Below are positions 9,588 to 53,926 of a DNA stretch of 64,000 nucleotides, in pieces. The position numbers and the translations under genes are program-made. How positions within the stretch are numbered: the stretch's first letter is position 1; each line of letters begins with the position of its first letter. Location: IMG/VR virus record IMGVR_UViG_3300029305_005988, positions 59,096 to 123,095 of that record, one strand, 5' to 3'. This DNA comes from a virus (lineage: Duplodnaviria > Heunggongvirae > Uroviricota > Caudoviricetes). The notes beneath the pieces are model-generated. The model was not told the DNA's origin. It was given only the letters and a program-made list of their open reading frames with translations, and did no database searches.

Positions 9588-9618
9588 ATGGAAAGGCGCT
9601 TAATTCGCGCCTTTCTTT
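9588..9618. terminator. bidirectional terminator hairpin aaaggcgcttaattcgcgccttt
   Basis: T/A runs on both sides; closes minus-strand module. Confidence 0.5.
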
Positions 9619-9701
9619 AGTCTCCAGTCTGACACTAATATTGGACAGTCTCCAAACTCTGACTTAAAGCGCAAACGCGCCGCAGCAAAGTATCCTTTTT
9701 C

Positions 9702-10274
9702 TTTAGAGATGTCTTCGCCCTGCTCTTGACGATAAAAAGCATTAGCTGCTTCAGACTCAGATATATGTTCTTCAAACATAATTTGGCGCCAACGTTCTAG
9801 AATCTATTGATCAAGAGGTTCGTATGTGCTATACCATACCCAGCGCCTAACGCCATTAGATTCTCCATATTCATCAAATACGGGACCAACATAGCGCTTA
9901 CTTACACCCTGTACATTATCATGCCCATACTTCTCTCTGCCAAAAGCGCATAACGCTTCACGAGTAGTTTTAGCTTTGCTATTAGGCTTAAACTCAGTAC
10001 CAAGCGCAGCAATAGTAAACATCTTGTAATCTTCTTGTTTTTGCGCCGTAGAAATTAAATTCTTGCGCGGTAAAGGTTGATAGGTGCCATAAATCTCATT
10101 AATTTTAATACGAATTGGGCGCCCATCCAATAATTCATAGTCATAGAAGTTGCTAATATGTTCTAACAACTCTTCTCTACGGGACTCCCATTGATTCTTT
10201 TTAATACCTGTCAATAGCCAGAATTCTTTTTTAAAGTCATAAATGTGTCCTACTTCAATTTGCATATTATTCAC
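9702..10274 (-). CDS. hypothetical protein; in-frame TAG at 9804-9806 (157 aa to TAG, ~190 aa if read through to TAA 9702)
   Basis: ORF 9804-10274 plus 34 open codons after TAG; RBS aaaggagtgaataat. Confidence 0.45.
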
Positions 10275-10459
10275 TCCTTTCTTAATTGATAAATAGCAAC
10301 TTCTCCTGAAAATTTGTCCTTATCTATAATATATATAGGGACAAAAATTAGGGTAGAAGTTTCTCAGGAAGACTTCTTCCTATTCATATTTATATTAAAA
10401 AAGCAATAGATAAATTAACTAATTTTGACCAAGCGCCGAACCTCGATTTATACTTCTTA

Positions 10460-10590
10460 AACCTGGACCCGCGCCAAAAAAGAGGTATGCGTTAGCATAC
10501 CCCTAGGGCGCCGATCTCTCCTTTATATCGACGCCCTCTCCTTTATCTCCTAGTCCATAGTATTATTAACCTGGACCGGCGCTTACATCA
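10460..10590. repeat. direct repeats aacctggacc(c/g)gcgc x2 and ctctcctttat x2
   Basis: seen in intergenic region of minus module. Confidence 0.4.
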
Positions 10591-10945
10591 ATCCTTTGAA
10601 GAAATCTTCATCATTAAACTTCTCTTGCATCTTCAATAGCTGAACATACATAGGGATCATCTTCTCCATCTTAATGATTGCGGTCTCCAGCTCCTTGATA
10701 TCTTCTTCAGTCCACTCTTCTCCATCTTCAAAGAGGTCAAATGCCTCAGTATATGCGAGAACTGCATTAATCAAATAGGCGCGGCCTTCTTGGAGAAGAT
10801 CTTCTTTACTCTTTTGATTTGCAGCAGCTTCTTGCTCTGCGCGCAATGCTTCTTCTTGTCTAGCTTTTTCTGCGCGGATGTCGGCTAGCGTCTTTTCAAT
10901 TTCCTCTTCAGAAGCTCCATTCCAGATCATTTCTTCAATATTCAT
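10583..10945 (-). CDS. hypothetical acidic coiled-coil protein (120 aa)
   Basis: ORF; AT-rich-class promoter on minus strand at ~10955-11010. Confidence 0.5.
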   Translation of the reverse strand: MNIEEMIWNGASEEEIEKTLADIRAEKARQEEALRAEQEAAANQKSKEDLLQEGRAYLINAVLAYTEAFDLFEDGEEWTEEDIKELETAIIKMEKMIPMYVQLLKMQEKFNDEDFFKGLM

Positions 10946-10954
10946 TAGTTTATA

Positions 10955-11010
10955 TCTCCTTTACTTTTCTATATATATTATATCATATTTTTTATATTAT
11001 TTCAATAAGG
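10955..11010 (-). promoter_or_regulatory. minus-strand promoter (ttgaaataatataaaaaatatgatataat)
   Basis: reverse complement matches second promoter class. Confidence 0.45.
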
Positions 11011-11111
11011 AAGACGAAGACGAGGGATGGGAGATGGTGGTTCTGGAGTCGGTTGCACCACACATCCACACTCTCTTATGCTCTCTTATATTTTTTTATA
11101 TTTTCTTATAA

Positions 11112-11372
11112 TTATAATACAATCTCCCACCACTTTGTATCTTCACTTAATATTCCTTCTTCTTGCAATCTTACTGTATACCAATATCTTGCATCAATTT
11201 CTTTTAACATCTCTTCTCTATCCACATTGTTTTCAATCATATCTTCTAATCTTTCTATCCATTTATTCTATTCTTCTACTATTACCACTCCTGCATGACT
11301 TAAACAATTAATCTAATCTTCATATTCCTTTTTTGCTTCTGGATATTTCTCCAACAACTCTTTTAACATCAT
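11112..11372 (-). CDS. hypothetical protein (86 aa) with 2 in-frame TAG
   Basis: RBS aaggagggttatagaatgatg; MMLKELLEKYPEAKKEYED*INCLSHAGVVIVEE*NKWIERLEDMI...; ends TAA. Confidence 0.45.
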
Positions 11373-11386
11373 TCTATAACCCTCCT

Positions 11387-12099
11387 TAAAAATTAAATCC
11401 AGCAATTTTCTTCTTTATCTCATCCTCATCTTGATCGTGGACGCAGTCCACGGGAGGGATAGACGAAGTCTTTCCCGACAAATTCTAATTATAATCATAA
11501 TTCTAATTATAATCATAATTCTAATAAGGAAACTTTGGAAACTTGGAAACATTTCCAGTTTCCTTAATTCCATCACAACTTTCCAAACTTTCTTGGAAAC
11601 TTTCAGAAACATTATCTACAATTTCCATATTTCCTAATGTTTCCAAACTTTCTTGGAAATTTCCAATGTTTCCAGAAATTTCTGGAAACTTTCCTAATGT
11701 TTCCTTATTTTCCAGTAAATGTGGAAACTCTGTGCGGATTTTTGTAAACATTTTTGATACTGCTGGCGGCTGAACTCCAAGCTCGCGGGCAATTGCCGCC
11801 TGTGTCATACCACTATTTTTCATTTCAATAATTCTACGATATTTCTCTTCAGAAGCAGCTATTTTAGCATCGTACCTATTCTTGCTTTGCGCAATTCTAT
11901 CTACATATCCTTCAAGAGCATCTTCAATATTCATATCATCACTACTAATATCTCCAGTAAGTATAGCTTCTAAAAAACTAATTGCATACTCTCCACCTTT
12001 AACAGGGTCTCTTTGATACCACTTCTTTGCCGTTTCAAACATCTTTCCATATACAATACCACTTTTTCTTACAGGATTGTTTTTAAACTCTTTAATCAT
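11387..12099 (-). CDS. HTH-containing protein (MTQAAIARELGV) with repetitive C-terminal tail; TAG at 11521-11523 (core 11521-12099 = 192 aa)
   Basis: ORF 11521-12099; if TAG is sense, extends through 18-bp tandem repeats (QNYDYN x2) to TAA abutting next RBS. Confidence 0.5.
11461..11520. repeat. 18-bp tandem repeat aattctaattataatcat x~3
   Basis: seen directly. Confidence 0.7.
11530..11700. repeat. repeat-rich block (ttccaaactttcttggaaa / tttccagaaatttctggaaa variants)
   Basis: multiple direct/inverted copies seen; encodes SFQESLE-type repeats. Confidence 0.6.
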
Positions 12100-12123
12100 T
12101 TCCGATACCTCCGATCCCTTATT

Positions 12124-12300
12124 TTAAACCTAAGACAATTTGCGCATAGCCTCTTGTAACTCAAGACTATCTTCAAATACATAATTATCAAAATAAGGCT
12201 TCTTCTCGTCAGGTACCACTCTAATAATCTTAAATCCCAACTTGCGCAATTCATACGCCATTTTTCGAGTGTAAATCACTCTTTCATTCATTTGATCCAT
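12124..12300 (-). CDS. hypothetical small protein (~58 aa); TAG-GTT-TAA at 3' end
   Basis: MDQMNERVIYTRKMAYELRKLGFKII...; starts overlapping previous TGA. Confidence 0.4.
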
Positions 12301-12484
12301 TTCCGTTTACGCGGCGCAAATAGTTCTCTAATTGCTACTTCACCCAAGCGGCAGGCGCATCCCTGTTGATAAACTTATAAAGCTAATCAGGATTATCTAA
12401 TTTTGCCTCTTGCGCAATCAACTTATAAGTATAACCTTTTACGCGCATCTCCTTTAACTAAAATATTATTTCTTCACGAGTCAT
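12288..12484 (-). CDS. small HTH protein (65 aa) with 3 in-frame TAG
   Basis: MTREEIIF*LKEMRVKGYTYKLIAQEAKLDNPD*LYKFINRDAPAAWVK*QLENYL...; RBS gaaaggagttagaaatg. Confidence 0.45.
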
Positions 12485-12509
12485 TTCTAACTCCTTTCAC
12501 TATTATATA

Positions 12510-12580
12510 AAAATTAAGGTAGTAATTGTATCTATTTTTGTCCAAATTTTTTACCATAATACTACCTTAATTTGCCAATT
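12510..12580. repeat. inverted repeat aaggtagta...tactacctt (9-bp arms)
   Basis: seen; possible operator/terminator between minus genes. Confidence 0.4.
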
Positions 12581-12745
12581 TTTCGACGATATGTTCTTTT
12601 CATGTTTTTTCTTATCTCGTCATCTTTAATTGATCTGCAACAATCTGTTGTTATTCCACCTTTTTTCAAAAGCAAATTCAATTAAAATCGTAACAAAATC
12701 GTGTTGGTTTGAAATGCGCCTAATCTTGCCCATTGGCGCCTTTTA

Positions 12746-13102
12746 TTAACAGCCATAAGTCTTCTTTATATCATGAGTAGCATATTCCAAATGGTCAGTC
12801 ATTGCGCGAATATTTGAAAGATCAAACTGTGTAACAACCTCATCTTCATTCTAATCTAATCGCCGCTCTAAAGCATTTACTCTATCCACTAACTTATCTA
12901 CATTAGCTTCAGCGCTAATTAATCTCCAAATCAAATCTCGTAAATCATAATCAGCATCTCCAATGTGAATGATAATAGTCTGCTCTCGAAGAATAGATCT
13001 TGGAAGACCACTTAACATCTCATAATCAATCACTTCTTGTTCACATGTAATATCAACAGGCTAAGACATAAAAATCTCTTTATCAAAACTATCTATCATC
13101 AT
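12746..13102 (-). CDS. hypothetical protein with 2 in-frame TAG (ORF 12851-13033 extended both ways)
   Basis: MMIDSFDKEIFMS*PVDITCEQEVIDYEMLSGL...RRLD*NEDEVVTQF...; ATGA overlap with upstream gene. Confidence 0.4.
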
Positions 13103-13515
13103 TCTACCTCTCTTTTATAGTGTAGTGTTTTAAGCGCCGATCGTAGCTCAGAGCATTCTTTTTTAGGCACAAAATTCTTCTTAAGGTCATTGATTTGCGC
13201 ATCTATCCTCTTAATTTCTGTAATAAGGCTATCAGTTATATTTTCAATAGCATAGTCATTAGCCTTAATAACTCCACTACAATACAAATTACCGCTATTC
13301 GCACTAGCTATTCCATAAGCGGTGTTGCTTCCTTCAGTTGCTAAATCAAAAGTACAATCAACCTCCGTCGCAGAGTCCGCGCTGAGACTTAAACTGCAAT
13401 CTTTAATATATCCCTTCATTACCTCATCACCGTTTGCACTATAACAAGCAACCGAGTAGGGTCTATTAAAACTATCTCCAAACCATGCTTCATTTGTTTT
13501 CTACCAAATAGCCAT
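13099..13515 (-). CDS. hypothetical protein (138 aa) with TAG at codon 5; C-terminal LKTLHYKREVE motif
   Basis: MAIW*KTNEAWF... joins ORF 13099-13419; C-terminus shared with 32256-32477. Confidence 0.5.
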
Positions 13516-13516
13516 T

Positions 13517-13994
13517 ATTTACCTCCACTCTTTTCGCTACAAATTCCAATATTTATCATATAATCCAATAACCCCAACTGTTTTATAATGGTGCGCTCGG
13601 CGCCTTCAGGCAGCTTGTGGTCAAAAAATAATTTAATTTCATAGTTATCTCTTTCAAATGGCGACAATGCTTCAACTTCTCCCTGCTCATAATCAATAAC
13701 TAAAAGCTAATCTCCATTATCGAAACAGGTAATCACTTTTCCATCTAATTGAAGCGCACTTTTTATTCCAATTTCAGCTTTAGCATGTGCCTCTATATCC
13801 ATTTGCGCAAGGTCTTGAATATATTTACTGCCTTTTGCGCCAATCATAATGTATTTAGTTGGAGTATATGGTGTAAAATCTATGCTTTCTTTCTCGCAAA
13901 GCCGCTATAGGCGCCGATTCTTCACTATTAGTCGCCCATAGTCAAACCCAATATATGTCAATATCAAAAATAAAAACAATCCCGTCCAGAACAT
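13517..13994 (-). CDS. membrane-anchored hypothetical protein (~159 aa) with 2 in-frame TAG
   Basis: MFWTGLFLFLILTYIGF... hydrophobic N-terminus; RBS aaaaggagaagcagatg. Confidence 0.4.
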
Positions 13995-14109
13995 CTGCTT
14001 CTCCTTTTATCTCTTTAATCTTTTATACACTTTAATTATACAATAAAATTAAAATAAAGTCAAGTGTTCCTTCCCATCAGCACCTTTTCAATTACCTTTT
14101 ATTTTCTAA

Positions 14110-20417: not shown

Positions 20418-20425
20418 TTCATATA

Positions 20426-20498
20426 GGGAATTAGTTTAACAGTAGAATGACTGTCTCCAAAACAGTAGGCTGCGGGGCAGCACCGTAATTCCCTGCCA
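20426..20498 (+). ncRNA. degenerate tRNA-like (Trp CCA-type anticodon arm, no canonical T-arm)
   Basis: acceptor gggaatt/aattccc 7/7, stem actgt/acagt, loop ctccaaa; T-region replaced by ctgcggggcag. Confidence 0.3.
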
Positions 20499-21698: not shown

Positions 21699-21774
21699 GG
21701 GGGTATAGTTTAAATGGTCAGAACGGGAGCCCTTCAAGCTTCAGATGTGGGTCCGATTCCCGCTATCCCTACCA
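21699..21774 (+). tRNA. tRNA-Glu(TTC)
   Basis: loop ccttcaa; T-arm gtggg/tccgatt/cccgc; CCA. Confidence 0.5.
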
Positions 21775-21936: not shown

Positions 21937-22745
21937 TGTTAATGCCGCCCATCAACTAATAAGAGCGCCGATGGGGAAGAGTTAATCTTTTAAGGTTGCG
22001 CCACTCCTGTCCGAGTGGGAGTATAAATAAAAATCTGGCGCACAGTGCCAACTTGGCTGTGCTTAATGGGAAGTTGGGATAAGGTTTCGAGGGTACCGTA
22101 AACCCTCACTTACATAAACTTGTCGACATTCTGCAAAATGTTCGAGTACAAGGGTAGCGTAAATTCCGTCGAGATTTGTTGCAGCATTGCAAAACGGGTC
22201 GGCGCCCAAGGGTAAGTAGCAAGTTGTCTTACCCCATATGATATGGCGGATGGGCATAGTGTTCACCAGAGCCTCATAAGCTCAGGTTGCTCGGGGCAGT
22301 ACCGAGATCCGCATCCACTATACCTAAAATAAAAAAGAGGTTCCTTGGGGAAGAAGCAGGGACCCAGTATCTCCACCTCGAGAATCTGATAAGGGCAGGC
22401 ATCTCAGTTGCGAGACTGAGCGGTAGATAATTACCGTCTTGAGCAGAAAAAATTATACTCTGTTATTGGAGAAAATTGCAATAACTATGCACCTGAATTG
22501 GAATGCCCCATTACAGCTCATGGGTGACTTGGTAGCGCGGAGGCGATGACGCAAAGTCTTCGAAAGAACAAGGGAAAGCTCAACCCAATGCGCCATATGC
22601 CAGAAGGGTCGGCGCCCATCGACGCCTCATACGCGTTGAGCGCTTGGATCGACACCAAGTTTTGGCACCATAAATCCGAGAGGGGCGGCGATGGAAGTTC
22701 TGTCGGCTCGGCTTGTCTGCGCGCACAGGCGCCCCCATTATATAC

Positions 22746-23075: not shown

Positions 23076-23201
23076 GGAGTGGTAGCCCAACAGGCAGAGG
23101 CAATGGACTTGTCTGATGTTCGGTAACCTAGACTGGGTCAGCACCAGTATCAGGCACCAAAAATCCATCAAGTGAGGGTTCGAATCCCTCTCACTCTACC
23201 A
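23076..23201 (+). ncRNA. 126-nt tRNA-like gene with 55-nt insertion in anticodon loop
   Basis: acceptor ggagtgg/tcactct, D-arm gccc..ggc, anticodon stem atgga/tccat enclosing 55 nt, T-arm gaggg/ttcgaat/ccctc, CCA; own upstream promoter. Confidence 0.4.
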
Positions 23202-23713: not shown

Positions 23714-23864
23714 CTTACCCGTGAGTAGTGGGGCTCTCGGCATCGCCAGTAAATAGCTACTCAAACTCCCAACGGTAGAGCAAATGACCAGAACTAGGAG
23801 TTAAAATAAACGAGACTAAGGATGTGCGGCTGACAACCTACTGTCATTACATATGCGAGTTTAG

Positions 23865-23939
23865 TTCAGAAGTAGAATACCGCTCTGATAAAGCGGGGGT
23901 GCTTGGGGCAGTACCAAGAATTCGCACCAAAACTCAAGA
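23865..23939 (+). tRNA. tRNA-Ile(GAT) with non-canonical T-loop ggcagta
   Basis: stem ccgct/agcgg loop ctgataa; acceptor gcgagtt/aattcgc; CCA. Confidence 0.55.
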
Positions 23940-24500: not shown

Positions 24501-25265
24501 ATGACATCAGGAATTTATATGTATTAGAACAAGGTTAATGGACAGTGCTATATTGGATAGGCAATAGACCTTGCACGGAGAAAAAAAGACCATAAAACAA
24601 GAGCCTTTAATGAATTTGAGGGTAATAATGAGTATAATTCAGTAATACATTAGGCTTTTAGAAAATATGGTTATGATAATTTTGAATATTCAGTATTAGA
24701 AGAATGTGAAATATCTTTGCTTAATGAAAGAGAACGATATTGGATTGCTTATTATAATTCTTATAAAGTTGGATATAATTGTGATGAAGGTGGCAATACT
24801 GCAAGACATTTTTGTAAATTTAATGCAGATATATTATAGGCATTAAAAAATGATTTACAAGAAACAAAAGATACCTATGAAATATTAGCAGCTCGATATG
24901 GAGTGTCCATTGGATATGTAAGCGATATTAATAATGGAAAAATATGGCATCAAGATGGTGTAATTTATCCATTACGGAAAAAGCAGTCTAAAAGTATTCA
25001 ATATTGTTCTTTATGTGGAGTTGAGATTTCTGGAGAAGGACAGACGGGCTTATGTGTTGCCTGTGCAAATGCAAGATATAGAAAAGTAGAACGTCCAACT
25101 CGAGAAGAACTAAAATATCTTATTAGAAATTTTACTTTTGTAGAAATTGGTAAGCAATTTGGAGTTGCAGATAACACTATTAAAAAATGGTGTAAAGCAA
25201 TGAATTTACCTTCTCGTAAAAAAGATATTAATTTATATTCAAACATAGAGTGGGAAGCTCTTTAA
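24501..25265 (+). CDS. GIY-YIG homing endonuclease with C-terminal HTH/Zn module; 4 in-frame TAG (24525, 24558, 24651, 24837)
   Basis: MTSGIYMY*NKVNGQCYIG*AIDLARR...; paralog 45405 has Q where this has TAG (FHQAIRKYG vs IH*AFRKYG); ORF 24903-25265 is its tail. Confidence 0.7.
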
Positions 25266-25703: not shown

Positions 25704-25705
25704 TT

Positions 25706-25770
25706 GATTTTTAATAAAAATTTTGTTATAATATATATACAAAATGAGAAATGAAAAAAGAAAACATTTG
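25706..25770 (+). promoter_or_regulatory. AT-rich-class promoter driving tRNA-Asp leader
   Basis: ttgatttttaataaaaattttgttataat. Confidence 0.5.
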
Positions 25771-25895: not shown

Positions 25896-25970
25896 GGCGG
25901 TATAGTTCAGCGGTGGAGCGCCTGACTGTCTATCAGGATGTCGAGGGTTCGAATCCCTCTACCGTCGCCA
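25896..25970 (+). tRNA. tRNA-Asp(GTC)
   Basis: stem cctga/tcagg loop ctgtcta; T-arm gaggg/ttcgaat/ccctc; CCA. Confidence 0.6.
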
Positions 25971-26199
25971 AAGTCTAATTTGTTAGTTATCCGAGACTTT
26001 AAACCTAAACTGACAAAAGGCGATTATCAACGCCGCACGCGAGCCTTTGAAAGATAAGTAGTGAAAAGCTGGAGTACTACAGTCTGATACGAATCGTATG
26101 TCATCGTGAGCCAACGGCATACTGCGGGACCTTGCCCGTATAAAACCAAGGAGGGTCAGAAGTGGAGTGAGCTACCGAGTATAAACGCTCACGATTTAT

Positions 26200-26275
26200 G
26201 CTGTGATAATTCAATTGGGAGAAGAGCCGGCGTCAAGCAGGCTAGTTGTGGGTTCGAGTCCCACTCACAGGTCCA
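26200..26275 (+). tRNA. tRNA with UCA-centred anticodon loop (cgTCAag, G33) - opal-reading/Sec-like candidate or mis-parse
   Basis: acceptor 6/7 (G1-G72 mismatch); T-arm gtggg/ttcgagt/cccac; CCA; anticodon stem gccgg/caggc with one mismatch. Confidence 0.3.
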
Positions 26276-27009
26276 GAGGTGCCAATGCCTAATCATTGGT
26301 CAGGAGTCTAACCTGTGCGGTATTACGCAGAGCGACCGGGGTCCCGCATCCGTGAGCAACGGGAAAAATAATAGGTGCCACGAAGCCAATAACTAGGGAG
26401 TGAATATTACTTGATGTAATTAGCCCATTCGATAAAATCCTAGGTACGAATGAGATACAGCTCTGTGAGGCGATAAAATGCAGTGGTAAATGGAGTTTGA
26501 TGAACAGCCTATTCCACCCCGCTCTAAGGGTGAGTACTCGAGGTCTGGAGCAACGAGTAAATAAATAAATAAAGTCCCCAGAGTCGTTTTGCGGTGTCGG
26601 AGAAAACCGCCATAGAGCGCAAGTGTTGTGGGTCGAGCGGGCTTAGAGCAATGGCCCAATTAGGTAAGGACAAGGTTCATGGAAATGCGCGGAAGTGACA
26701 AAAACCCTCAGTTTTCCTTGTTTTCACAAAACAAGGTGGGCTCAAGTTGGGCATCTACTGTGACCTCTGGGAGGAGTCCCCTTCGATCCTCCACCTATTC
26801 AACAGAGTGAGTAGAGAGCGAAGTCGCAAACGCTATATAAAAAGACGAGTAATAGTGTTGAGTCTTAAGACACAGGCAGCGGTGGGCCAAATATCCGCTG
26901 GAGTTTCGCCTCCAAGATGAAGTGCGAGATTTATGATGTAAGTCGTGATTAGCTCTGAAGTGGACGCTTATTTAAGCAGCTTCGGTCTACGGCGCGGGTC
27001 CAGCTTTCC

Positions 27010-27085
27010 GCATCCAAGAGCTGGAATTTCGGGGTGTAGCCTAGTTGGTTAGGCGCTTGCTTTGGGAGCAAGATCACGCGGGTTC
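27010..27085 (+). tRNA. tRNA-Pro(TGG)
   Basis: stem cttgc/gcaag loop tttggga; D-stem gcct/aggc; CCA. Confidence 0.6.
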
Positions 27086-27260
27086 GAGTCCTGTCACTCC
27101 GTCCAATATTTACACCCTAAAGATTCTTAGGGCAACAATCGGCGCCAATCCATCTCCCAGCAGTTGGATAATACGCGCAAGAACTTTATGGAGTTCGGAG
27201 AGTCTTTCTCTTGCTGGGTATAAAAACTCTCCTCCTCTTTTTCCATTAAGAGATACATAT

Positions 27261-27389: not shown

Positions 27390-27440
27390 TCATCTAACCA
27401 CCATTAGATGATAGTAGCCTCCAAGTTTTTAATTGATTTT
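27390..27440 (+). terminator. long hairpin terminator (gctatcatctaa..ttagatgatagc + gttttt)
   Basis: seen. Confidence 0.55.
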
Positions 27441-27888: not shown

Positions 27889-27923
27889 AATATTGGAGGT
27901 TAGCCTAGTGGTCAGGCAGTCGG

Positions 27924-28392
27924 CTGTTTTAACTGACTTTAATCTTTAATGAAAAAAGATAGTGAACAGTAAGCAAATTGGCAATATTACCGAAGTATCT
28001 GTTATGCTTGAGTTTTTAAAATTAGGATATAATATTTTAACTCCTTATGGAGATTGCGAACGATATGATTTTGTTGCAGATATTAATCATAAATTTTATA
28101 AAATTCAAGTAAAAACAGCAAAAAAAGATAATGGTAAAATCGAATTTAATACAGCATCCACTCATTATGTAGATGGAAAATGTATTCATGACTCTTATAC
28201 AAAAGATGAAATTGATTACATTGCAACTTATTTTAATAATAAGTGTTATTTAATTCCAATTGAGGAATGTGGAAAGCGCTCTGCTTCAATTCGTTTTGAA
28301 GCTCCTAAAAATGGACAAACCAGAGGAGTTCGAATGGCAGAAGATTATGAGTTGGAGGAAGTAATTAAAAGATTAAACTGATGTTAAAGCAA
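27924..28392 (+). mobile_element. intervening element in tRNA anticodon loop (group I intron-like or novel) encoding PD-(D/E)XK-like nuclease
   Basis: only ~40 nt 5' and ~11 nt 3' of non-ORF sequence, too little for a canonical group I core. Confidence 0.4.
27962..28381 (+). CDS. putative PD-(D/E)XK-fold homing endonuclease (139 aa), paralog of 30291-30905
   Basis: GDCERYDFVADIN...KIQVK motif block conserved with paralog (GEDCRYDMIVDIN...RVQVK); lies inside split tRNA. Confidence 0.45.
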   Translation: MNSKQIGNITEVSVMLEFLKLGYNILTPYGDCERYDFVADINHKFYKIQVKTAKKDNGKIEFNTASTHYVDGKCIHDSYTKDEIDYIATYFNNKCYLIPIEECGKRSASIRFEAPKNGQTRGVRMAEDYELEEVIKRLN

Positions 28393-28653
28393 CCGACCTA
28401 CGGGAGTTCAATCCTCTCACTTCCAGCCAGTCGATTATCGACAAAAACCGTTATCATGAATTTGGCAGTTAAACTACCACCGACTCTAACAATTAGCACC
28501 CAGTATGCGGTCAAGTATTGAATATGAGGTATGTGGCTTAGTGGGAAACGGTATATCAAAGACGCAAAGTAAACTGCCGCTTGGATGATTTTTTCATGGT
28601 TTTCCTCCCTTCAACGGGTTTGGGCATTACCGTTAAAACAATGCCTTTAGAAT

Positions 28654-30176: not shown

Positions 30177-30228
30177 CTATATTTTCTTATGCAATTAAGT
30201 TGAACTTTTTAATATGCACCTGTCGCAT

Positions 30229-30919
30229 AGTGGCCGATTGCACTCGCCTTGTTCGTAAATTTAAGACTTCCTATAAAGGAGGTTGATATAATGAATGAGA
30301 CAAAGATTAAAGGTTTAACCACTGAGCTTCAATGTCAATTATTCTTTACTCAATTGGGTTATAATGTTAGTATCCCGTTAGGAGAAGATTGTAGATATGA
30401 TATGATAGTAGATATTAATGGCATACTCTTGCGAGTTCAAGTAAAACACGCAACTGTTGCAGAAAATGGTATTACTATTTCTACTCGTTCTACTCAATCT
30501 AACACTTCAGGATCAAAAAGTTTAACCTATAATAAGGAACAAATTGATTATTTTGCAACTTTTTATAATAACCAGTGTTATTTAATTAAAGTTGAAGAAT
30601 GTTCAACTCAAAAAACTTTAGCTTTTACTAAAATTCAACAAATGCAGAACTTCATTGATGATTTTTTGGCTGAAAAAGAAATTCAAAGAATCTTAAATGG
30701 GGAAGATGCTATAGAAGATACTGTAATAGCAAATGTATATCAATATGATTTGCGTGGCAACTTAATAGGAGCCTATTCAAGTGCCGTTGCAGCAGCTGAA
30801 AGTTTAGGAGATCGCTCTAAAAATTCTCATATTACCAAATGCCTTAATGGGCATAGGCAAACAGCATATGGGTATAAATGGAGCAGGACACTATTGAAGT
30901 CTTAAACATTATGATCAAA
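30229..30919 (+). mobile_element. intervening element in tRNA anticodon loop encoding nuclease ORF
   Basis: no G at predicted 3' splice position, so a group I assignment is doubtful. Confidence 0.35.
30291..30905 (+). CDS. putative PD-(D/E)XK-fold homing endonuclease with C-terminal DNA-binding tail (GYKW), paralog of 27962-28381
   Basis: conserved block with paralog; RBS ataaaggaggttgatataatg. Confidence 0.45.
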   Translation: MNETKIKGLTTELQCQLFFTQLGYNVSIPLGEDCRYDMIVDINGILLRVQVKHATVAENGITISTRSTQSNTSGSKSLTYNKEQIDYFATFYNNQCYLIKVEECSTQKTLAFTKIQQMQNFIDDFLAEKEIQRILNGEDAIEDTVIANVYQYDLRGNLIGAYSSAVAAAESLGDRSKNSHITKCLNGHRQTAYGYKWSRTLLKS

Positions 30920-31505
30920 GCGAGAGACCTTGTCCGCGTTGGTTCGAATCCAACTAGGTGCTCCATGGCGTCAAGAAGAAAACCTGCGCGTGGTGACGCT
31001 GCACGCTCTTACCCAGTGGCTAATTTCTTCATGCATCACCTCCTTTCGATGCAAAAAGGCGGCGCACGCCTGTAAGTCCCCAAGCTATCTTGGCTAAAGT
31101 GTTGCGGGGAGCATACCCTGACAAACCTCTGTGGCTGGGTTATAAGCTCGGAAAATAGACACTTCTCCATTTAGTGAGAAACCGTTAGTGTCACTAAGCG
31201 AGGGTGGCGGGAAAAACCTTCGCTTCTTCCCATTTAAACTTGATATACGACAGGTGAAGTCGATAAAACTGCCTTGGTAGGGTAGCGCCCTACGGAAGAG
31301 ACGATAGAGCGCAAGAGGGCGTCCCAAGATTATCAAGTACAATTTATATTAGCTTAAGAGAGCCTTTGTCCCAAACACAGCGCTCCGTCAAAAGAAACCG
31401 TTTAGCACGGACTCGCAAGAGATAGTACTCGGTAGGGTTGGGAAAAGCGTGGATACAATTAGCTACTCCACGGGAAATTTCAATTGACAATCTTAAGCGC
31501 CTTCT

Positions 31506-42220: not shown

Positions 42221-42319
42221 TGGGGGGTCGCTTAATGGTCATAGCAGCGGTCTCTAAAACCGCCAGAGCCTACGGGTCTGCTCCGTAGTATGTGGGTTCG
42301 AGTCCCACCCCCCCAGCCA
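42221..42319 (+). tRNA. amber-suppressor tRNA(CUA), Gln-type identity, with 28-nt extra (variable) arm
   Basis: stem gcggt/accgc loop ctCTAaa; U1:A72, G73, tc-gct D-arm as in tRNA-Gln; variable arm ctacgg-gtctgct-ccgtag hairpin; T-arm gtggg/ttcgagt/cccac; CCA. Confidence 0.6.
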
Positions 42320-43049: not shown

Positions 43050-43901
43050 ATGACTTATACTCTAAAAAATGGTGAGACTATTGAATCTATACCAATTGGA
43101 CGTTCCTCTGTGATTATAGGAGAAAAAAGTCCAAGTGGAATGCTAACAGTTTGTGATCGAGGCCCTGCTCCTATTAGCGGGAGAGGCGCCACCGTAATCT
43201 GTCAATGCTAGTGCGGAAAATATACTCTTATTAAATTAAATGAGTTGCGAACAGGTAATACTAAATCTTGTGGTTGTTATGCACAAGAAAAAGCAAAAGA
43301 AAATGGTAAATATGTAGGCTCTTTACCTAAAAAAGCAAAAGATTATACACTTATAGATAATCCTTTTTATACTTTTATTCAAAGAACAGATAAAAAAGAT
43401 ATTTCAAATAGTTTCTTTTGGATAGTACAGTGTAAAAGATGCGGCAAACAATATGAAGAAGTGCCTTCTCAAATTATTTCTACCACTCGAGCACGAGGCA
43501 ATAATCCTTGTAGTTGTTGGAAACATTTAAGTAAAGGAGAGCAAAAGATCATAAATCTGCTTTTAAATAACAATATTTCCTTTTCACAACAAGTGACTTT
43601 TAAAGATTGCCTTTCTCCACTAGGGAACCCTTTAAAATTTGATTTTTTTATTGAACAAAAGTATTTAATTGAATTTGATGGTGAGTAGCATTTTTTACCT
43701 CAACAATTTGGAAATAACGAATCTGGAGAAGAAAAATTAAAGCTTACTCAAGAATACGATGCAATTAAAAACCAATGGTGTAAAAATAATGGAATTCCGC
43801 TAATAAGAATTCCTTATACTCATTACAGTCAATTAAATATTAAAGATTTATTATTAGAAACAAGTAATTTTATATTAAAGGAGAAAATAAATGCCGAATA
43901 A
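43050..43901 (+). CDS. Zn-finger + Vsr/DUF559-like (PD-(D/E)XK) endonuclease, HEG-like; 2 in-frame TAG (43209, 43686)
   Basis: RBS aaaaggagatgaataaaaatg; ...VICQC*CGKY...KFDFFIEQKYLIEFDGE*HFLPQQFGN...; ORF 43245-43688 is the middle segment. Confidence 0.5.
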
Positions 43902-45171
43902 AATTTATAATGAAGATAGTACGCAACATATATCTCCTCGAGAGTTTACACGAAAAAGACCTGGTACCTATTGTGGTTCAACCGAGTATAGCACACAGCT
44001 TATTCGAGAGCTATTCGCCAATGCTTTAGATGAACACAATATAGGCCATGGTAATGTAATTTCAATCGAGGCTGATACAAAAAAGAACTTGTATACGGTT
44101 ACAGACTTAGGACAAGGCTTTATCCCTGGCGCGCCAAGAGAAAATGGGGAAACAATGTTTTCAGAATGTTTCTCGGTTATTAATACTTCAGGCAAGTATG
44201 ATGATGCTGATGATTCGATCTATGGTGGAAGTGCTCTAGGACTCAATGGTATAGGCATGAAGTTAGTCTGTTACCTTTCAAGCTGGTCTCAAGCTACAAC
44301 AACCAATGGCAGCGGCAAGAGAGAAACAATTACCTATAAAGATGGTTTGTTTGAATCGCGTCAAATTACCGACGAAAAGAAAGATATTCACGGTACAACA
44401 ATTAGTTATCAACCAGATCCTCAATTCTTCCAGCATCAAGAAGCAAACTTTGACGAGTTGAGAAAGATGTTTACCGACATCGCCGCACTTTGCCCCATGC
44501 TTACTATTGAACTTACTGTTGACGGAAAAAAAGAAATATTCCACTCTTCAAGAGGTTTAAATGACTTGATTGATGCAAAAGTTGGTGATAATGAAATTCT
44601 TTCAAATCGTTTTATTGCGCGTAGAGAGTCGGGCGCAGATCTCTTTGATATTTGCTTAACTTATACTTCTAATTATTCAGAAGATGTAACGGGTTATGTT
44701 AATTTTGGTTTAACTGAAAGCGGCGTTCATATGACGGCTTTGAGAACTAATTTAACAAGACTAATTAATAAATTTGCGAATGATAAAAAGATGTTTAAAG
44801 CAGGAGAGTCAAATCTTACTGGACAGGAGCTCTCTGAAGGACTTGTAATTATTTTCAATCTTAAAGCAAAAAAGGTTGCTTATGATAGCCAGTCAAAAGT
44901 AAGAGTTGTTGACATTGATAAGACATTGATTAATCAGACTCTAAGTGAAGACTTTGCTCAATGGCTTGAGTCTAATCAAAAGGATGTTAAAATTATTATT
45001 GACAAAGCGCTAAGTGCTCGTAGAGCAAGAGAGGCTGCTAAAAAGGCGCGCGACGCGGCTCGAGGCGACAAAAAGAAAAAGGAAAAGGCGCTTAAGTTTG
45101 ACTCTAAACTAGCAGATTGTTATTCAAAGGTTCGCGCCAACTGTGAGATCTATGTAACTGAGGGTAAGTGA
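43891..45171 (+). CDS. gyrB: DNA gyrase/topo II subunit B, exon 1 (GHKL ATPase + transducer), ends inside TOPRIM motif
   Basis: GHKL ATPase motifs; ...CEIYVTEG then K-stop from intron. Confidence 0.8.
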   Translation: MPNKIYNEDSTQHISPREFTRKRPGTYCGSTEYSTQLIRELFANALDEHNIGHGNVISIEADTKKNLYTVTDLGQGFIPGAPRENGETMFSECFSVINTSGKYDDADDSIYGGSALGLNGIGMKLVCYLSSWSQATTTNGSGKRETITYKDGLFESRQITDEKKDIHGTTISYQPDPQFFQHQEANFDELRKMFTDIAALCPMLTIELTVDGKKEIFHSSRGLNDLIDAKVGDNEILSNRFIARRESGADLFDICLTYTSNYSEDVTGYVNFGLTESGVHMTALRTNLTRLINKFANDKKMFKAGESNLTGQELSEGLVIIFNLKAKKVAYDSQSKVRVVDIDKTLINQTLSEDFAQWLESNQKDVKIIIDKALSARRAREAAKKARDAARGDKKKKEKALKFDSKLADCYSKVRANCEIYVTEGK

Positions 45172-46273
45172 AAACTATTGCCCGAATCCTTTTTACCATT
45201 AATCAGTGGGGTCACAATTATTGTGGCTAACGGGGAAAGCTGACCATTACACAGATATGTCAAAATCTGTTTAGGTGAAGTCAATCCCGTGGCAAAATTT
45301 TAAAATTTTTAGGTCAAATCTTGATAAATTTCTTACTCTCACTTTCATATATAAATAGAAGGAGACAGAGTACTTCTAATATATTTGAAATAAGGAGAAT
45401 AATAATGATTGGAATTTACAAGTACACAAACAAAATTAATGGGAAACACTATATTGGATAGAGCATTAATTTAGAAATGCGCAAATATGCACATAAATCT
45501 TCTGCTTTTAATGAAAATGCTAAAGATTATAATGCTCAATTTCATCAAGCAATTCGTAAATACGGTTGGGATAATTTTGATTATGAAGTAATCGCAGAGT
45601 TAACCCCAGAAGAATATACGAAAGAAGGACTTGATGCCTTAGAAAGATATTTTATTAAATATTACGACTCTTTTCATAATGGCTATAATGCCACCGAAGG
45701 CGGAGATGATAATCCACTTAGGGCGCAAAAAGGCTCTGCCAATGGGCGTGCGCTTTTAACAGAAGAGGATGTTATTTATATTAGAGAATGTTATAATGCA
45801 CATATTCCTTTTAGAGAGGTTTATGCAGAGTATCAAGATAAAATATCTAAAAGAGGGCTTCAAAAAGTATGGTGGTTTGATACATGGAAAGATATCTATC
45901 CAGAGTATCATACAGAAGAAAATAAAAAATGGCATGCTACAAAAGCAAAAGCTAATGCTTCAGAGGTTGCCGCAAATAATAAACGCAGTTTTACCGAAGA
46001 AGAAGTTAAAAAAATGAGAGAAGAGTACGACAATGGAATGTCACCAAAGCAAATTTGGCTAAGATATGCACCAGAGAAAGCTTGGTCGACAGTTTATAAT
46101 GTTGTAACAAGACAGACCTATAAAGATATTTAAAATAAGCTGTATCGACTATCCCGAGTGAGATCGGGAGTAGAAATGTTATTGATACGCATTTCGAAAT
46201 AGAGGACACGATGATGACCTGACAAGTCGGAGTGAAGAGATAGTCAGTGCCTATAGAAATATAGGAGCACATG
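45166..46273 (+). mobile_element. group I-like intron in gyrB carrying GIY-YIG HEG
   Basis: 5' exon ends ggT, intron ends atG; splice restores YVTEG|DSASGN = TOPRIM EGDSA motif; candidate P1 pairing gggu/gccc. Confidence 0.55.
45405..46133 (+). CDS. intron-encoded GIY-YIG homing endonuclease with in-frame TAG at 45459
   Basis: MIGIYKYTNKINGKHYIG*SINLEMRKYAH...GYNATEGG; ORF 45477-46133 is its body. Confidence 0.7.
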
Positions 46274-46912
46274 GATAGTGCGTCTGGAAACCTTAAGTCA
46301 GCTCGAAACAATGAGTTCCAGGCTGTAATGCCAGTTCGAGGTAAAATCCTTAATTGTCAAAAGAATACGCTGGATAAGATCCAAAAGAACGCAGAGATTA
46401 TGACTATGATTGAGGCATTTGGTCTTAAAGCAGACCCTAAGACGATGAAACTTACCTATGACAAAGACTCACTGCGTTATGGCAAGATTATTATAGCTGC
46501 TGATGGAGATGCTGATGGTAGCCATATTCGAAACCTGTTTTATACTTTTATCTGGAACTTCTGTCCGCAACTTATTCAAGAGGGATATGTGTATGCTCTT
46601 GTAGCGCCGCTCTATAAGATTACGATGGGTAAAGATACTTATCTATATTTAAGAGACGATAAAGAATTGGCTGAGTTCCAAGAGAAAAATAGAGGAAAAA
46701 AGTATCAGGTCAATAGATTTAAGGGATTAGGTGAAATGTCAGAGGACGAGACTGAAATTCTTGTAGACCCAGGCTTAAGAGTGCTAAATCAGGTTGCGGT
46801 TGAAGAAGCAAAGAAAGCAGATGTCTTATTTGATCAATTGATGGGCGTTGGGGTTGCAGCGAGAAAGAAGTTTATTCAGGATCATAGCAAGGAGGCTAAA
46901 TATGGAGTATAA
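46271..46912 (+). CDS. gyrB: DNA gyrase/topo II subunit B, exon 2 (TOPRIM + tail)
   Basis: DSASGN...PVRGKILNCQKNT...IIIAADGDADGSHIRNL ~ GyrB EGDSAGGS...PLKGKILNVEKAR...IMTDADVDGSHI. Confidence 0.75.
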   Translation: MDSASGNLKSARNNEFQAVMPVRGKILNCQKNTLDKIQKNAEIMTMIEAFGLKADPKTMKLTYDKDSLRYGKIIIAADGDADGSHIRNLFYTFIWNFCPQLIQEGYVYALVAPLYKITMGKDTYLYLRDDKELAEFQEKNRGKKYQVNRFKGLGEMSEDETEILVDPGLRVLNQVAVEEAKKADVLFDQLMGVGVAARKKFIQDHSKEAKYGV

Positions 46913-52680: not shown

Positions 52681-52734
52681 TTAAAAAAGGAAATAAGGGG
52701 TAATTGAATAAATTACCCCTTAAATTGTAAAAAT

Positions 52735-53926
52735 GATAGCATTATGTGTAATATCAATTCTTCTTGGCGCAGGCGGTCTTGCTTATGGAGTATGGACTAA
52801 AGCCACATCTGGAAAGGTTAACCGCTATACAATAGAAGAAAATTAGAAACTAGAAGAACTCAATTAGTCATTACATGCAACTCGCAAAAGTCTAGAAGCT
52901 CAAAATGACTTATTGATAAAATCTAACAATGAAATTTCTCAAAGGTATGAAGAGAACTGTAAAAAAACAAAAAATTCTTACGACGAATTAAATCAATTAA
53001 CTCAATAGAAATTAAAGTTAATAGATGAAATTCAAATTAAACAAATTGAAAAAGCGGGAGTGGAAGCGCAAATCACTGCTTTAAGTAGCTCTGTAGAAAC
53101 AATGTCAGGCGACTTAAAGGTAGCTGCTCGCGCATCATTCGAACAATATTGTGATGCTCTTGATTATGAGTATAAGAAAAAAGAACAAGAGTTCGATACA
53201 GAAATAGATACTCTTGATCAACTATACTTTAATAGATTACAAGAGCTTGATGCAAGAGAAAAAGGATTAATTGAAGAGCGTAGACAAGATATTGAGATAC
53301 TTGCAAAACTATTCTATGATAAGCAACAATCAATGTCTAAAGAGTTGCAAGAAGAAGAAGCGGCAATGCGCGCCGATCTAGATTCAATTCGTAAAGAGCT
53401 AGAAAAAATTCGTGCAACTAAGGCCGCCGCGATGGAGGCACAGTTACGCGAAGAAGAAATTAAAAACAAAGCAACATTTTATACCCTTCAGCTTAATGAT
53501 GCAGATAAGCGCGATGTTGCATATCTTCAAAGCATTGAATATAACTTGCGCGAACCAAGACCTTTACGCATGCTTATATGGTCTACATTCTATCGAGATA
53601 AAGTCAATGACCTTGCGGCGCGCGTAGGCGCGTTGGGCGCAAGTGGAATATATAAGCTAACCCATATTGACTCTGGTATATCGTATATCGGTCAAGCTAA
53701 GGACATTAAAGAGCGTTGGGTAACACATGTTAAATGCAGCTTGGGTATCGACACCCCTGTAACAAGTCAACTCTATGCATTTACAAGAGAAAAGGGTATT
53801 GACAACTTTACTTTTGAAGTATTAGAGAAATGCAGTATAAATGAATTAAATGAAAAGGAGAAGTTTTATATCGACCTTTATCAAACATATGATTTTGGAT
53901 TGAATAAAACTCGCGGAAATGGATGA
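52735..53926 (+). CDS. TM-anchored coiled-coil protein with C-terminal GIY-YIG nuclease domain; 3 in-frame TAG
   Basis: MIALCVISILLGAGGLAYGV... then 3 TAG, joins ORF 53060-53926 (GIYKLTHIDSGISYIGQAKDIKERW). Confidence 0.5.

Follow-up and report, generated by a model that had tools for sequence, protein, structure and literature searches.

A lineage-specific tRNA gene with a UCA anticodon and a defective anticodon arm in a phage that uses TGA as an ordinary stop codon

The window analyzed here, a 64,000-nt stretch covering about half of a ~135-kb genome, belongs to a large gut or rumen phage (GC ~39%). A cluster of about 30 tRNA genes extends from 18.8 to 31.7 kb and has homing endonuclease genes of the GIY-YIG and PD-(D/E)XK types dispersed across it. 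In almost all of these tRNA genes CCA is encoded and base 1 immediately follows a (c/t)(a/t)tat leader. Inside the cluster is a 76-nt tRNA-shaped gene with UCA in the anticodon position (the UCA tRNA), which has a 'tttat' 5' leader and an encoded CCA like its neighbors. The gene order is Asp, 229-nt spacer, UCA tRNA, 754-nt element, Pro(UGG), and the local features are as follows.

25704..25732, plus strand: promoter-like site TTGATT-17-TG-TATAAT, a match to the consensus only and one of a repeated set in the cluster
25896..25970, plus strand: tRNA-Asp(GUC), upstream neighbor of the UCA tRNA (ARAGORN, Rfam)
25971..26199, plus strand: 229-nt non-coding spacer, forming one cassette with the UCA tRNA; 71% identical to related locus L053 and absent in L028
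26200..26275, plus strand: tRNA-shaped gene of 76 nt, anticodon position UCA, encoded CCA (ARAGORN; Rfam RF00005, 33.9 bits)
26226..26242, plus strand: anticodon arm of the UCA tRNA, stem GCCGG/CAGGC and loop CGUCAAG (ARAGORN)
26248..26264, plus strand: canonical T arm of the UCA tRNA, GUGGG-UUCGAGU-CCCAC, perfect in the ARAGORN fold and the Rfam alignment
26276..27029, plus strand: 754-nt conserved non-coding element, running from directly after the UCA tRNA CCA to tRNA-Pro (alignment with relatives)
27030..27105, plus strand: tRNA-Pro(UGG), downstream neighbor (ARAGORN, Rfam)

Because the promoter-like consensus at 25704-25732 is followed by another only at 27433, with no terminator-like site seen between the two, the UCA tRNA is probably part of one transcript comprising tRNA-Asp, the spacer, the UCA tRNA, the 754-nt element, tRNA-Pro and tRNA-Leu.

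The sequence of the gene, GCUGUGAUAAUUCAAUUGGGAGAAGAGCCGGCGUCAAGCAGGCUAGUUGUGGGUUCGAGUCCCACUCACAGGUCCA, is folded by ARAGORN into a 76-nt cloverleaf with the acceptor strands GCUGUGA/UCACAGG, in which a G1.G72 mismatch sits atop the 7-bp helix. The D stem has three pairs plus A10.G25 (3-4 bp, with an 8-nt loop), the variable loop has 5 nt, and U73 precedes the encoded CCA. Direct reading of the sequence gives a complete and canonical tertiary core, with U8-A14-A21, A15-U48, C13-G22-G46, A9-A23-U12 and U54-A58, with G18/G19 matched to U55/C56, and with a purine (A37) at position 37. A canonical anticodon arm has five standard pairs, U33 and a non-Watson-Crick 32-38 combination; here the stem contains the internal mismatch G30.A40 (26229/26239), position 33 is G (26232), and C32 and G38 of the 7-nt loop are able to pair. 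The triplet at 34-36 is UCA (26233-26235), complementary to a stop codon. The ARAGORN fold and the Rfam match thus reproduce the cloverleaf described in an initial annotation made from the sequence alone, including its good T arm, its CCA and its G1/G72 mismatch, and the fold also bears out the stem gccgg/caggc with a single mismatch, identified as G30.A40, and the loop cgTCAag with G33.

ARAGORN labels the gene 'SeC', which is merely its name for the anticodon tca, and a selenocysteine tRNA has only this label and the anticodon in its favor. Its shape excludes that class: the acceptor and T helices are 7/5 instead of 8/5, the D stem has 3-4 bp instead of 6, the variable loop has 5 nt in place of a long arm, position 73 is U and not G, and the whole is 76 nt long. 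Moreover, the general tRNA model outscored the related clan model, none of the approximately 40 window proteins scanned against Pfam is SelA, SelB or SelD, and no in-frame TGA was found in the 64-kb window. The probability of a selenocysteine tRNA is therefore close to nil.

When the region was searched alone, the Rfam tRNA model RF00005 matched the UCA tRNA over model positions 1-71 with 33.9 bits, above the cut-off of 29 (E = 7.6e-6 for 181 nt searched and 4.7e-5 for 1.1 kb). In the whole-window scan the gene was dropped by the speed filters, and all 23 tRNAs reported there, at 43.7-71.4 bits, score higher. The Rfam alignment retains only three anticodon-stem pairs, around an 11-nt 'loop'. 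With 18 canonical pairs, the gene has fewer than any other normal-length tRNA of the window. The minimum-energy fold is 8.3 kcal/mol more stable than its cloverleaf, a gap that only one other tRNA of the window exceeds. The anticodon proposed in the initial annotation is kept by the software, whereas the covariance score, on which the proposal also depended, is the lowest seen and barely over the threshold. Nevertheless, the UCA tRNA is a genuine tRNA derivative and not a chance match, because it lies in a cluster of about 30 tRNAs and shares the leader type and the encoded CCA of its neighbors.

Several other tRNAs of the cluster are unusual in their own ways. The odd T loop GGCAG(C/U)A occurs instead of UUCGAAU in a Trp-CCA, an Ile-GAU and a CAU tRNA of the window (20425-20498, 23855-23929 and 22245-22317, plus strand) and in a Pro-UGG tRNA of a relative (L055, 15275-15346); all four were missed by ARAGORN, and that at 22245-22317 was missed by Rfam too. 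The tRNA-Thr(UGU) at 23076-23201 (plus strand) contains a 47-49-nt tRNA-like mini-helix nested in its anticodon loop, with the acceptor GUCUGAU/AUCAGGC starting from G35 of the outer anticodon, the T arm CUGG-GUCAGCA-CCAG and a terminal ACCA; at the matching point in relative L055 (15868-16021) there is a 76-79-nt tRNA-like insert that also ends in GCACCA. Asn(GUU) and Thr(UGU) tRNAs, within 27894-28429 and 30216-30965 (plus strand), are each split immediately after anticodon base 36 by an insert consisting almost wholly of a PD-(D/E)XK homing endonuclease ORF (27962-28381 and 30249-30905). These inserts give no Rfam intron match at E up to 1, and the RNA left around each ORF is too short to accommodate a group I core. 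Asn and Thr tRNAs occur in the window only in interrupted form. A cluster of RNA ligase, kinase and phosphatase genes at 37.6-39.9 kb (37636-39942) could in principle reseal cut tRNAs.

Related loci were collected through the 829-aa protein encoded downstream of the cluster, which resembles the Major Vault Protein (MVP) and yielded 45 IMG/VR loci, and through a protein encoded upstream of it, which yielded four more (L054-L057) that extend the clusters of the closest phages. The MVP-like protein itself (32561-35050, plus strand) has MVP shoulder and repeat domains, is 50-88% identical across the 45 IMG/VR phage contigs, and in GenBank matches only the uncultured huge phages LR756500, LR756501 and LR756503.

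A table of anticodon arms was drawn up for 136 unique tRNAs called by ARAGORN in the window and in all related loci scanned; that of the UCA tRNA is the most deviant among them. Position 33 is U in 125 of 135 clade tRNAs, and G33 occurs in two of 136, as does an internal 30-40 mismatch. The combination C32-G38, able to close the loop to 5 nt, is found in the UCA tRNA and in no other of the 136, so that this gene alone unites all three defects. The remaining non-U33 tRNAs of the clade mainly have C33 (Glu-UUC, Ala-UGC) or A33 (Leu-UAG), and in the three window examples the same loop recurs in a relative:

21699-21774, plus strand: tRNA-Glu(UUC), C33
22746-22833, plus strand: tRNA-Ala(UGC), C33
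24325-24402, plus strand: tRNA-Leu(UAG), A33

Since these non-U33 loops are conserved in the clade, G33 by itself does not disqualify the UCA tRNA. The conserved C33 and A33 loops may be an adaptation against anticodon-loop nucleases (compare PMC10264068).

No homologue of the UCA tRNA was recovered. ARAGORN found no UCA tRNA in any of the 45 + 4 related loci, including the covered parts of the clusters of the three closest phages, and an Rfam scan of the upstream loci L054, L055 and L057 gave no further candidate. Pattern scans of IMG/VR (on the anticodon and T arms, on these two arms with the loop left free, and on the D arm), of JGI metagenomes (free anticodon loop) and of GTDB genomes were likewise without a UCA tRNA homologue. 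In blastn against GenBank phages the only similarity was generic, at ~75% to Gly, Trp and Lys tRNAs, and among 142 tRNAs of the window and its relatives the closest match has ~70% identity, which is also a generic level. The strain is also present in JGI samples 3300029705, 3300032167, 3300024270, 3300018878, 3300018475 and 3300024272. Exact-protein look-ups for the same strain elsewhere returned only contigs of 1-8 kb that stop short of the gene, and look-ups of the spurious ORFs overlapping it and of a flanking gene fragment returned nothing. A suppressor would be expected to be common to related phages; the UCA tRNA is absent in the three closest phages and in all collections scanned and is, by these sequence comparisons, an orphan specific to a single lineage.

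A further proposal is that the gene is a variant Trp tRNA for which UGG and UGA would be equivalent, as they are under genetic code 4. UCA is one change away from CCA, but the UCA tRNA has U73 instead of G73 and G1.G72 instead of A1-U72, and it has no specific similarity to the phage's own Trp(CCA) tRNA (20425-20498), which has A1-U72 and G73. Neither the identity elements nor the descent of a Trp tRNA are thus found, and TGA is a stop in this phage, making a Trp variant very improbable. Presumably, U73, C2-G71, C35 and A36 would make charging with Gly or Cys more plausible than charging with Trp.

The elements on either side of the gene are shared with a few relatives. IMG/VR scans for the flanks recovered only phages already among the relatives, with the spacer in one contig and the downstream element in four contigs representing the three closest phages; GenBank phages gave no match, a metagenome scan for further copies was empty, and no Rfam family (ROOL, GOLLD, Y RNA or any other) matched either flank at E up to 1. 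The 3' 280 nt of the 754-nt element are conserved in four phages, with compensatory changes in 9 of 62 predicted pairs. In the window and in the relatives this element always starts directly after a tRNA CCA, and it ends at tRNA-Pro. In contig 3300029305_006221 it directly follows the CCA of the Asp tRNA, and neither the spacer nor an extra tRNA is present.

In the closest relative (contig 3300029305_004519, locus L053) the spacer is present, with an identical 47-nt core and with its last 45 nt ~93% identical to the window, and the downstream element has 95.5% identity over its first 112 nt. The slot of the UCA tRNA is occupied there by a different, 71-nt tRNA-like element with a perfect 7-bp acceptor (G3.U70, A73), a 5-bp T arm, a canonical T loop and CCA, and without an anticodon arm; its Rfam score of 28.1 bits is under the cut-off. 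Because this element replaces the UCA tRNA between flanks that are 93-95% identical, the slot must have been exchanged exactly at the mature-tRNA boundaries, and it tolerates occupants that do not decode.

The finding that the slot can hold an armless element raises the alternative that the UCA tRNA is a non-decoding tRNA-like module retained for its upper half (acceptor, T arm and CCA), which would serve either as an RNase P and 3'-end signal releasing the 229-nt and 754-nt RNAs or as a decoy for host tRNA-targeting nucleases. Consistent with this, the occupant in the closest relative keeps just the acceptor, T arm, T loop and CCA, a tRNA CCA always immediately precedes the downstream element, the two flanks show conservation and apparent structure, and anticodon nucleases exert selection on phage tRNAs (PMC10264068). 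The argument has only two examples, however, and since an ordinary tRNA-Asp forms the same boundary in a third phage, no special boundary element is required. Such a module is accordingly a decidedly unlikely explanation.

Whether the UCA tRNA reads UGA is constrained by the use of TGA in the genome. Among the 51 ORFs of at least 120 aa in the window, 24 end in TGA (~47%), 23 in TAA and 4 in TAG, and many of the TGA stops overlap the start of the next gene as ATGA, which agrees with the initial annotation that more than 20 confident genes end in TGA and that it is a real stop. Coding coverage with TGA as sense is 45.7 kb compared with 45.5 kb, which is no gain, whereas TAG as sense adds 5.5 kb. 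No gene in the 64-kb window of the ~135-kb genome was found to require an in-frame TGA, so that TGA shows neither of the marks of a suppressed stop, in-frame occurrence and depletion as a terminator. The only long ORF pairs joined by TGA, on the minus strand at 4-8 kb, were rejected as antisense shadows, as PHROG hits were obtained for the overlapping ORFs of the plus strand and for none of those on the minus strand. A crude coding-density signal for TGA recoding in relatives was likewise dismissed as noise from tRNA regions. In a comparison of 21 genes with their orthologues in four relatives, TGA is used here where the relatives often use TAA; TGA stops have therefore not been purged in the lineage carrying the UCA tRNA. 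TGA and TAA stops do not clearly differ in how far away the following in-frame stop lies, a comparison for which there are too few genes. TGA is thus an ordinary stop here, and the genome is not adjusted to UGA read-through.

These data weigh on the alternative that the gene is a working, weak opal suppressor, that is, an RNA that is charged and occasionally reads UGA, which would give low-level C-terminal extensions or constitute a first step toward TGA recoding. The 7-nt loop that holds UCA has A37, the tertiary core is undamaged, CCA is encoded, the gene lies within what the promoter consensus suggests is an expressed unit, and non-U33 loops are tolerated in the clade. In a published model (bioRxiv 10.1101/2021.08.26.457843) a suppressor is gained ahead of recoding, and the structural and lysis genes in which recoding concentrates are absent from those identified in the window. 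Against it, TGA ends ~47% of the genes, is undepleted relative to the relatives and is never needed in-frame in the 64 kb, and the tRNA has the worst anticodon arm of 136, has G1.G72 and is conserved in no relative. A working weak suppressor is thus possible but rather doubtful. The more specific proposal of a deliberately weak opal suppressor, with its non-canonical G33/C32-G38 loop, in a phage that already reads TAG as glutamine, is unlikely.

The true code change of this phage, which the initial annotation passed over, is, judged from its sequence, the reading of TAG as Gln through a second tRNA:

42221..42319, plus strand: tRNA(CUA), a Gln-like amber suppressor with a long extra arm (Rfam, 56.3 bits; hand fold)

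ARAGORN calls this gene '???' with a four-base anticodon (taaa), but the hand fold gives the stem GCGGU/ACCGC and the loop CUCUAAA, and the anticodon is therefore CUA. The gene has U1-A72, G2-C71, G3-C70 and G73, as in Gln tRNAs, and has only the 17-nt T arm in common with the UCA tRNA. CUA tRNAs occur 8-10 kb downstream of the MVP-like gene in L001, L028 and L038, as in the window. TAG 'ends' just one gene in a curated set of 51 on the plus strand, and the frame of this gene runs 70 codons further. Two GIY-YIG endonuclease genes contain in-frame TAG, four in 24501-25265 and one in 45321-46133, with the Pfam GIY-YIG domain extending across these codons; Gln occupies the YIGQ position in a third paralogue and, in one of the TAG genes, a position where the other has TAG. 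Further candidates for in-frame TAG are 43050-43901 and 52733-53926, and several more distant relatives show a strong coding-density gain with TAG as sense. The reading as Gln follows because TAG is almost never terminal, occurs in-frame at Gln positions and is accompanied by a Gln-like tRNA(CUA). It corresponds to the recoding already known from gut phages (bioRxiv 10.1101/2021.08.26.457843; PMC10607447; PMC9523058).

Two further parts of the window may be described here. A minus-strand block at 9600-14000 has a GC content of ~35% and reversed GC skew, and its ORFs broken by TAG join when TAG is taken as sense. The replication genes at 43-64 kb encode GyrA, a split GyrB, NAD ligase, DnaB and RecJ; GyrB (43891-46912, plus strand) is encoded in two pieces, the N-terminal one at 43891-45171 and one with the Toprim and C-terminal regions at 46271-46912, and the interrupter is the GIY-YIG endonuclease gene with in-frame TAG at 45321-46133.

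Taken together, the UCA tRNA is read here as a mutated or decaying, structurally impaired tRNA cassette with little or no decoding role, to which a probability of slightly over one half is assigned; most likely it is at most a weak opal suppressor. Its anticodon-arm defects, its orphan status and the armless occupant of the same slot in the closest relative fit a pseudogene or non-decoding element, but its core is intact. Among the four options of the initial annotation, the Sec-like element falls on its shape and the Trp variant on its lack of relation to Trp(CCA), whereas both a decayed tRNA and a weak opal suppressor remain, with the evidence leaning to decay. Several observations count against decay. 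The intact core, T arm and CCA fit a tRNA that is working or was working very recently. In addition, the context for transcription and processing is normal, non-U33 loops are tolerated in the clade, and phage suppressor tRNAs are expected to be non-canonical (Borges et al., bioRxiv 10.1101/2021.08.26.457843).

On the favored reading, the UCA tRNA is a real tRNA-derived gene of one lineage in a cluster that homing endonucleases keep reshuffling. It is probably co-transcribed with tRNA-Asp, tRNA-Pro and tRNA-Leu and excised by RNase P and 3' trimming like its neighbors, a route suggested by the undamaged state of its acceptor helix, T arm, tertiary core and CCA. The resulting RNA would be impaired at its decoding end by G30.A40, by the C32-G38 pair that can shrink the loop to 5 nt and by G33, and G1.G72 would add a mismatch at the end read by elongation factor and synthetases. 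With so poor an anticodon arm and this mismatch, UGA would be decoded poorly or not at all, and TGA would stay a stop. Its only retained use may be to mark the processing boundary of the two conserved non-coding RNAs that flank it.

Among known systems, the gene resembles the opal suppressors of gut phages in being a UCA tRNA of an animal-gut phage whose relatives have genomes of ~130-140 kb; the genetic code is labile in those clades, and a standard-code phage with an acquired TGA suppressor has been reported (Borges et al., bioRxiv 10.1101/2021.08.26.457843). Unlike in those phages, TGA is here the commonest stop and never needed in-frame, the recoded codon is TAG, and the UCA tRNA is absent from relatives and defective in its anticodon arm. 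The low covariance score, broken pairs, lack of conservation and endonuclease-rich surroundings are those of degenerate tRNA copies and pseudogenes in large phage tRNA clusters, yet the core, T arm and CCA are perfect, and it is the anticodon arm and the 1-72 pair that bear most of the damage. The amber tRNA-Sup(CUA) of phages that read TAG as Gln, among them phAss-1 and crAss-like phages (PMC10607447, PMC9523058) has its counterpart in the window at 42221-42319, together with in-frame TAG at Gln positions, and the UCA tRNA is a different gene. Phage tRNAs that evade host anticodon nucleases (PMC10264068) share with it a non-canonical anticodon loop, and an RNA ligase, kinase and phosphatase cluster lies nearby; those tRNAs, however, read sense codons and are conserved, whereas the UCA tRNA is an orphan with a stop-reading anticodon.

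For a phage in which about half the genes stop at TGA, an opal-reading tRNA is an apparent paradox, which the favored reading resolves as a lineage-specific impaired copy. The ARAGORN labels 'SeC' and '???' are both misleading here, and because the TAG-as-Gln code change is hidden behind the '???' call at 42221, the genome should be annotated with translation table 15. If the gene were instead a working weak suppressor, a single phage would be manipulating two stop codons, and either read-through isoforms of TGA-terminated genes would arise or the first step of a second code change would have been captured. The case shows that cassettes in phage tRNA clusters are swapped rapidly, and precisely at the boundaries of the mature tRNAs.
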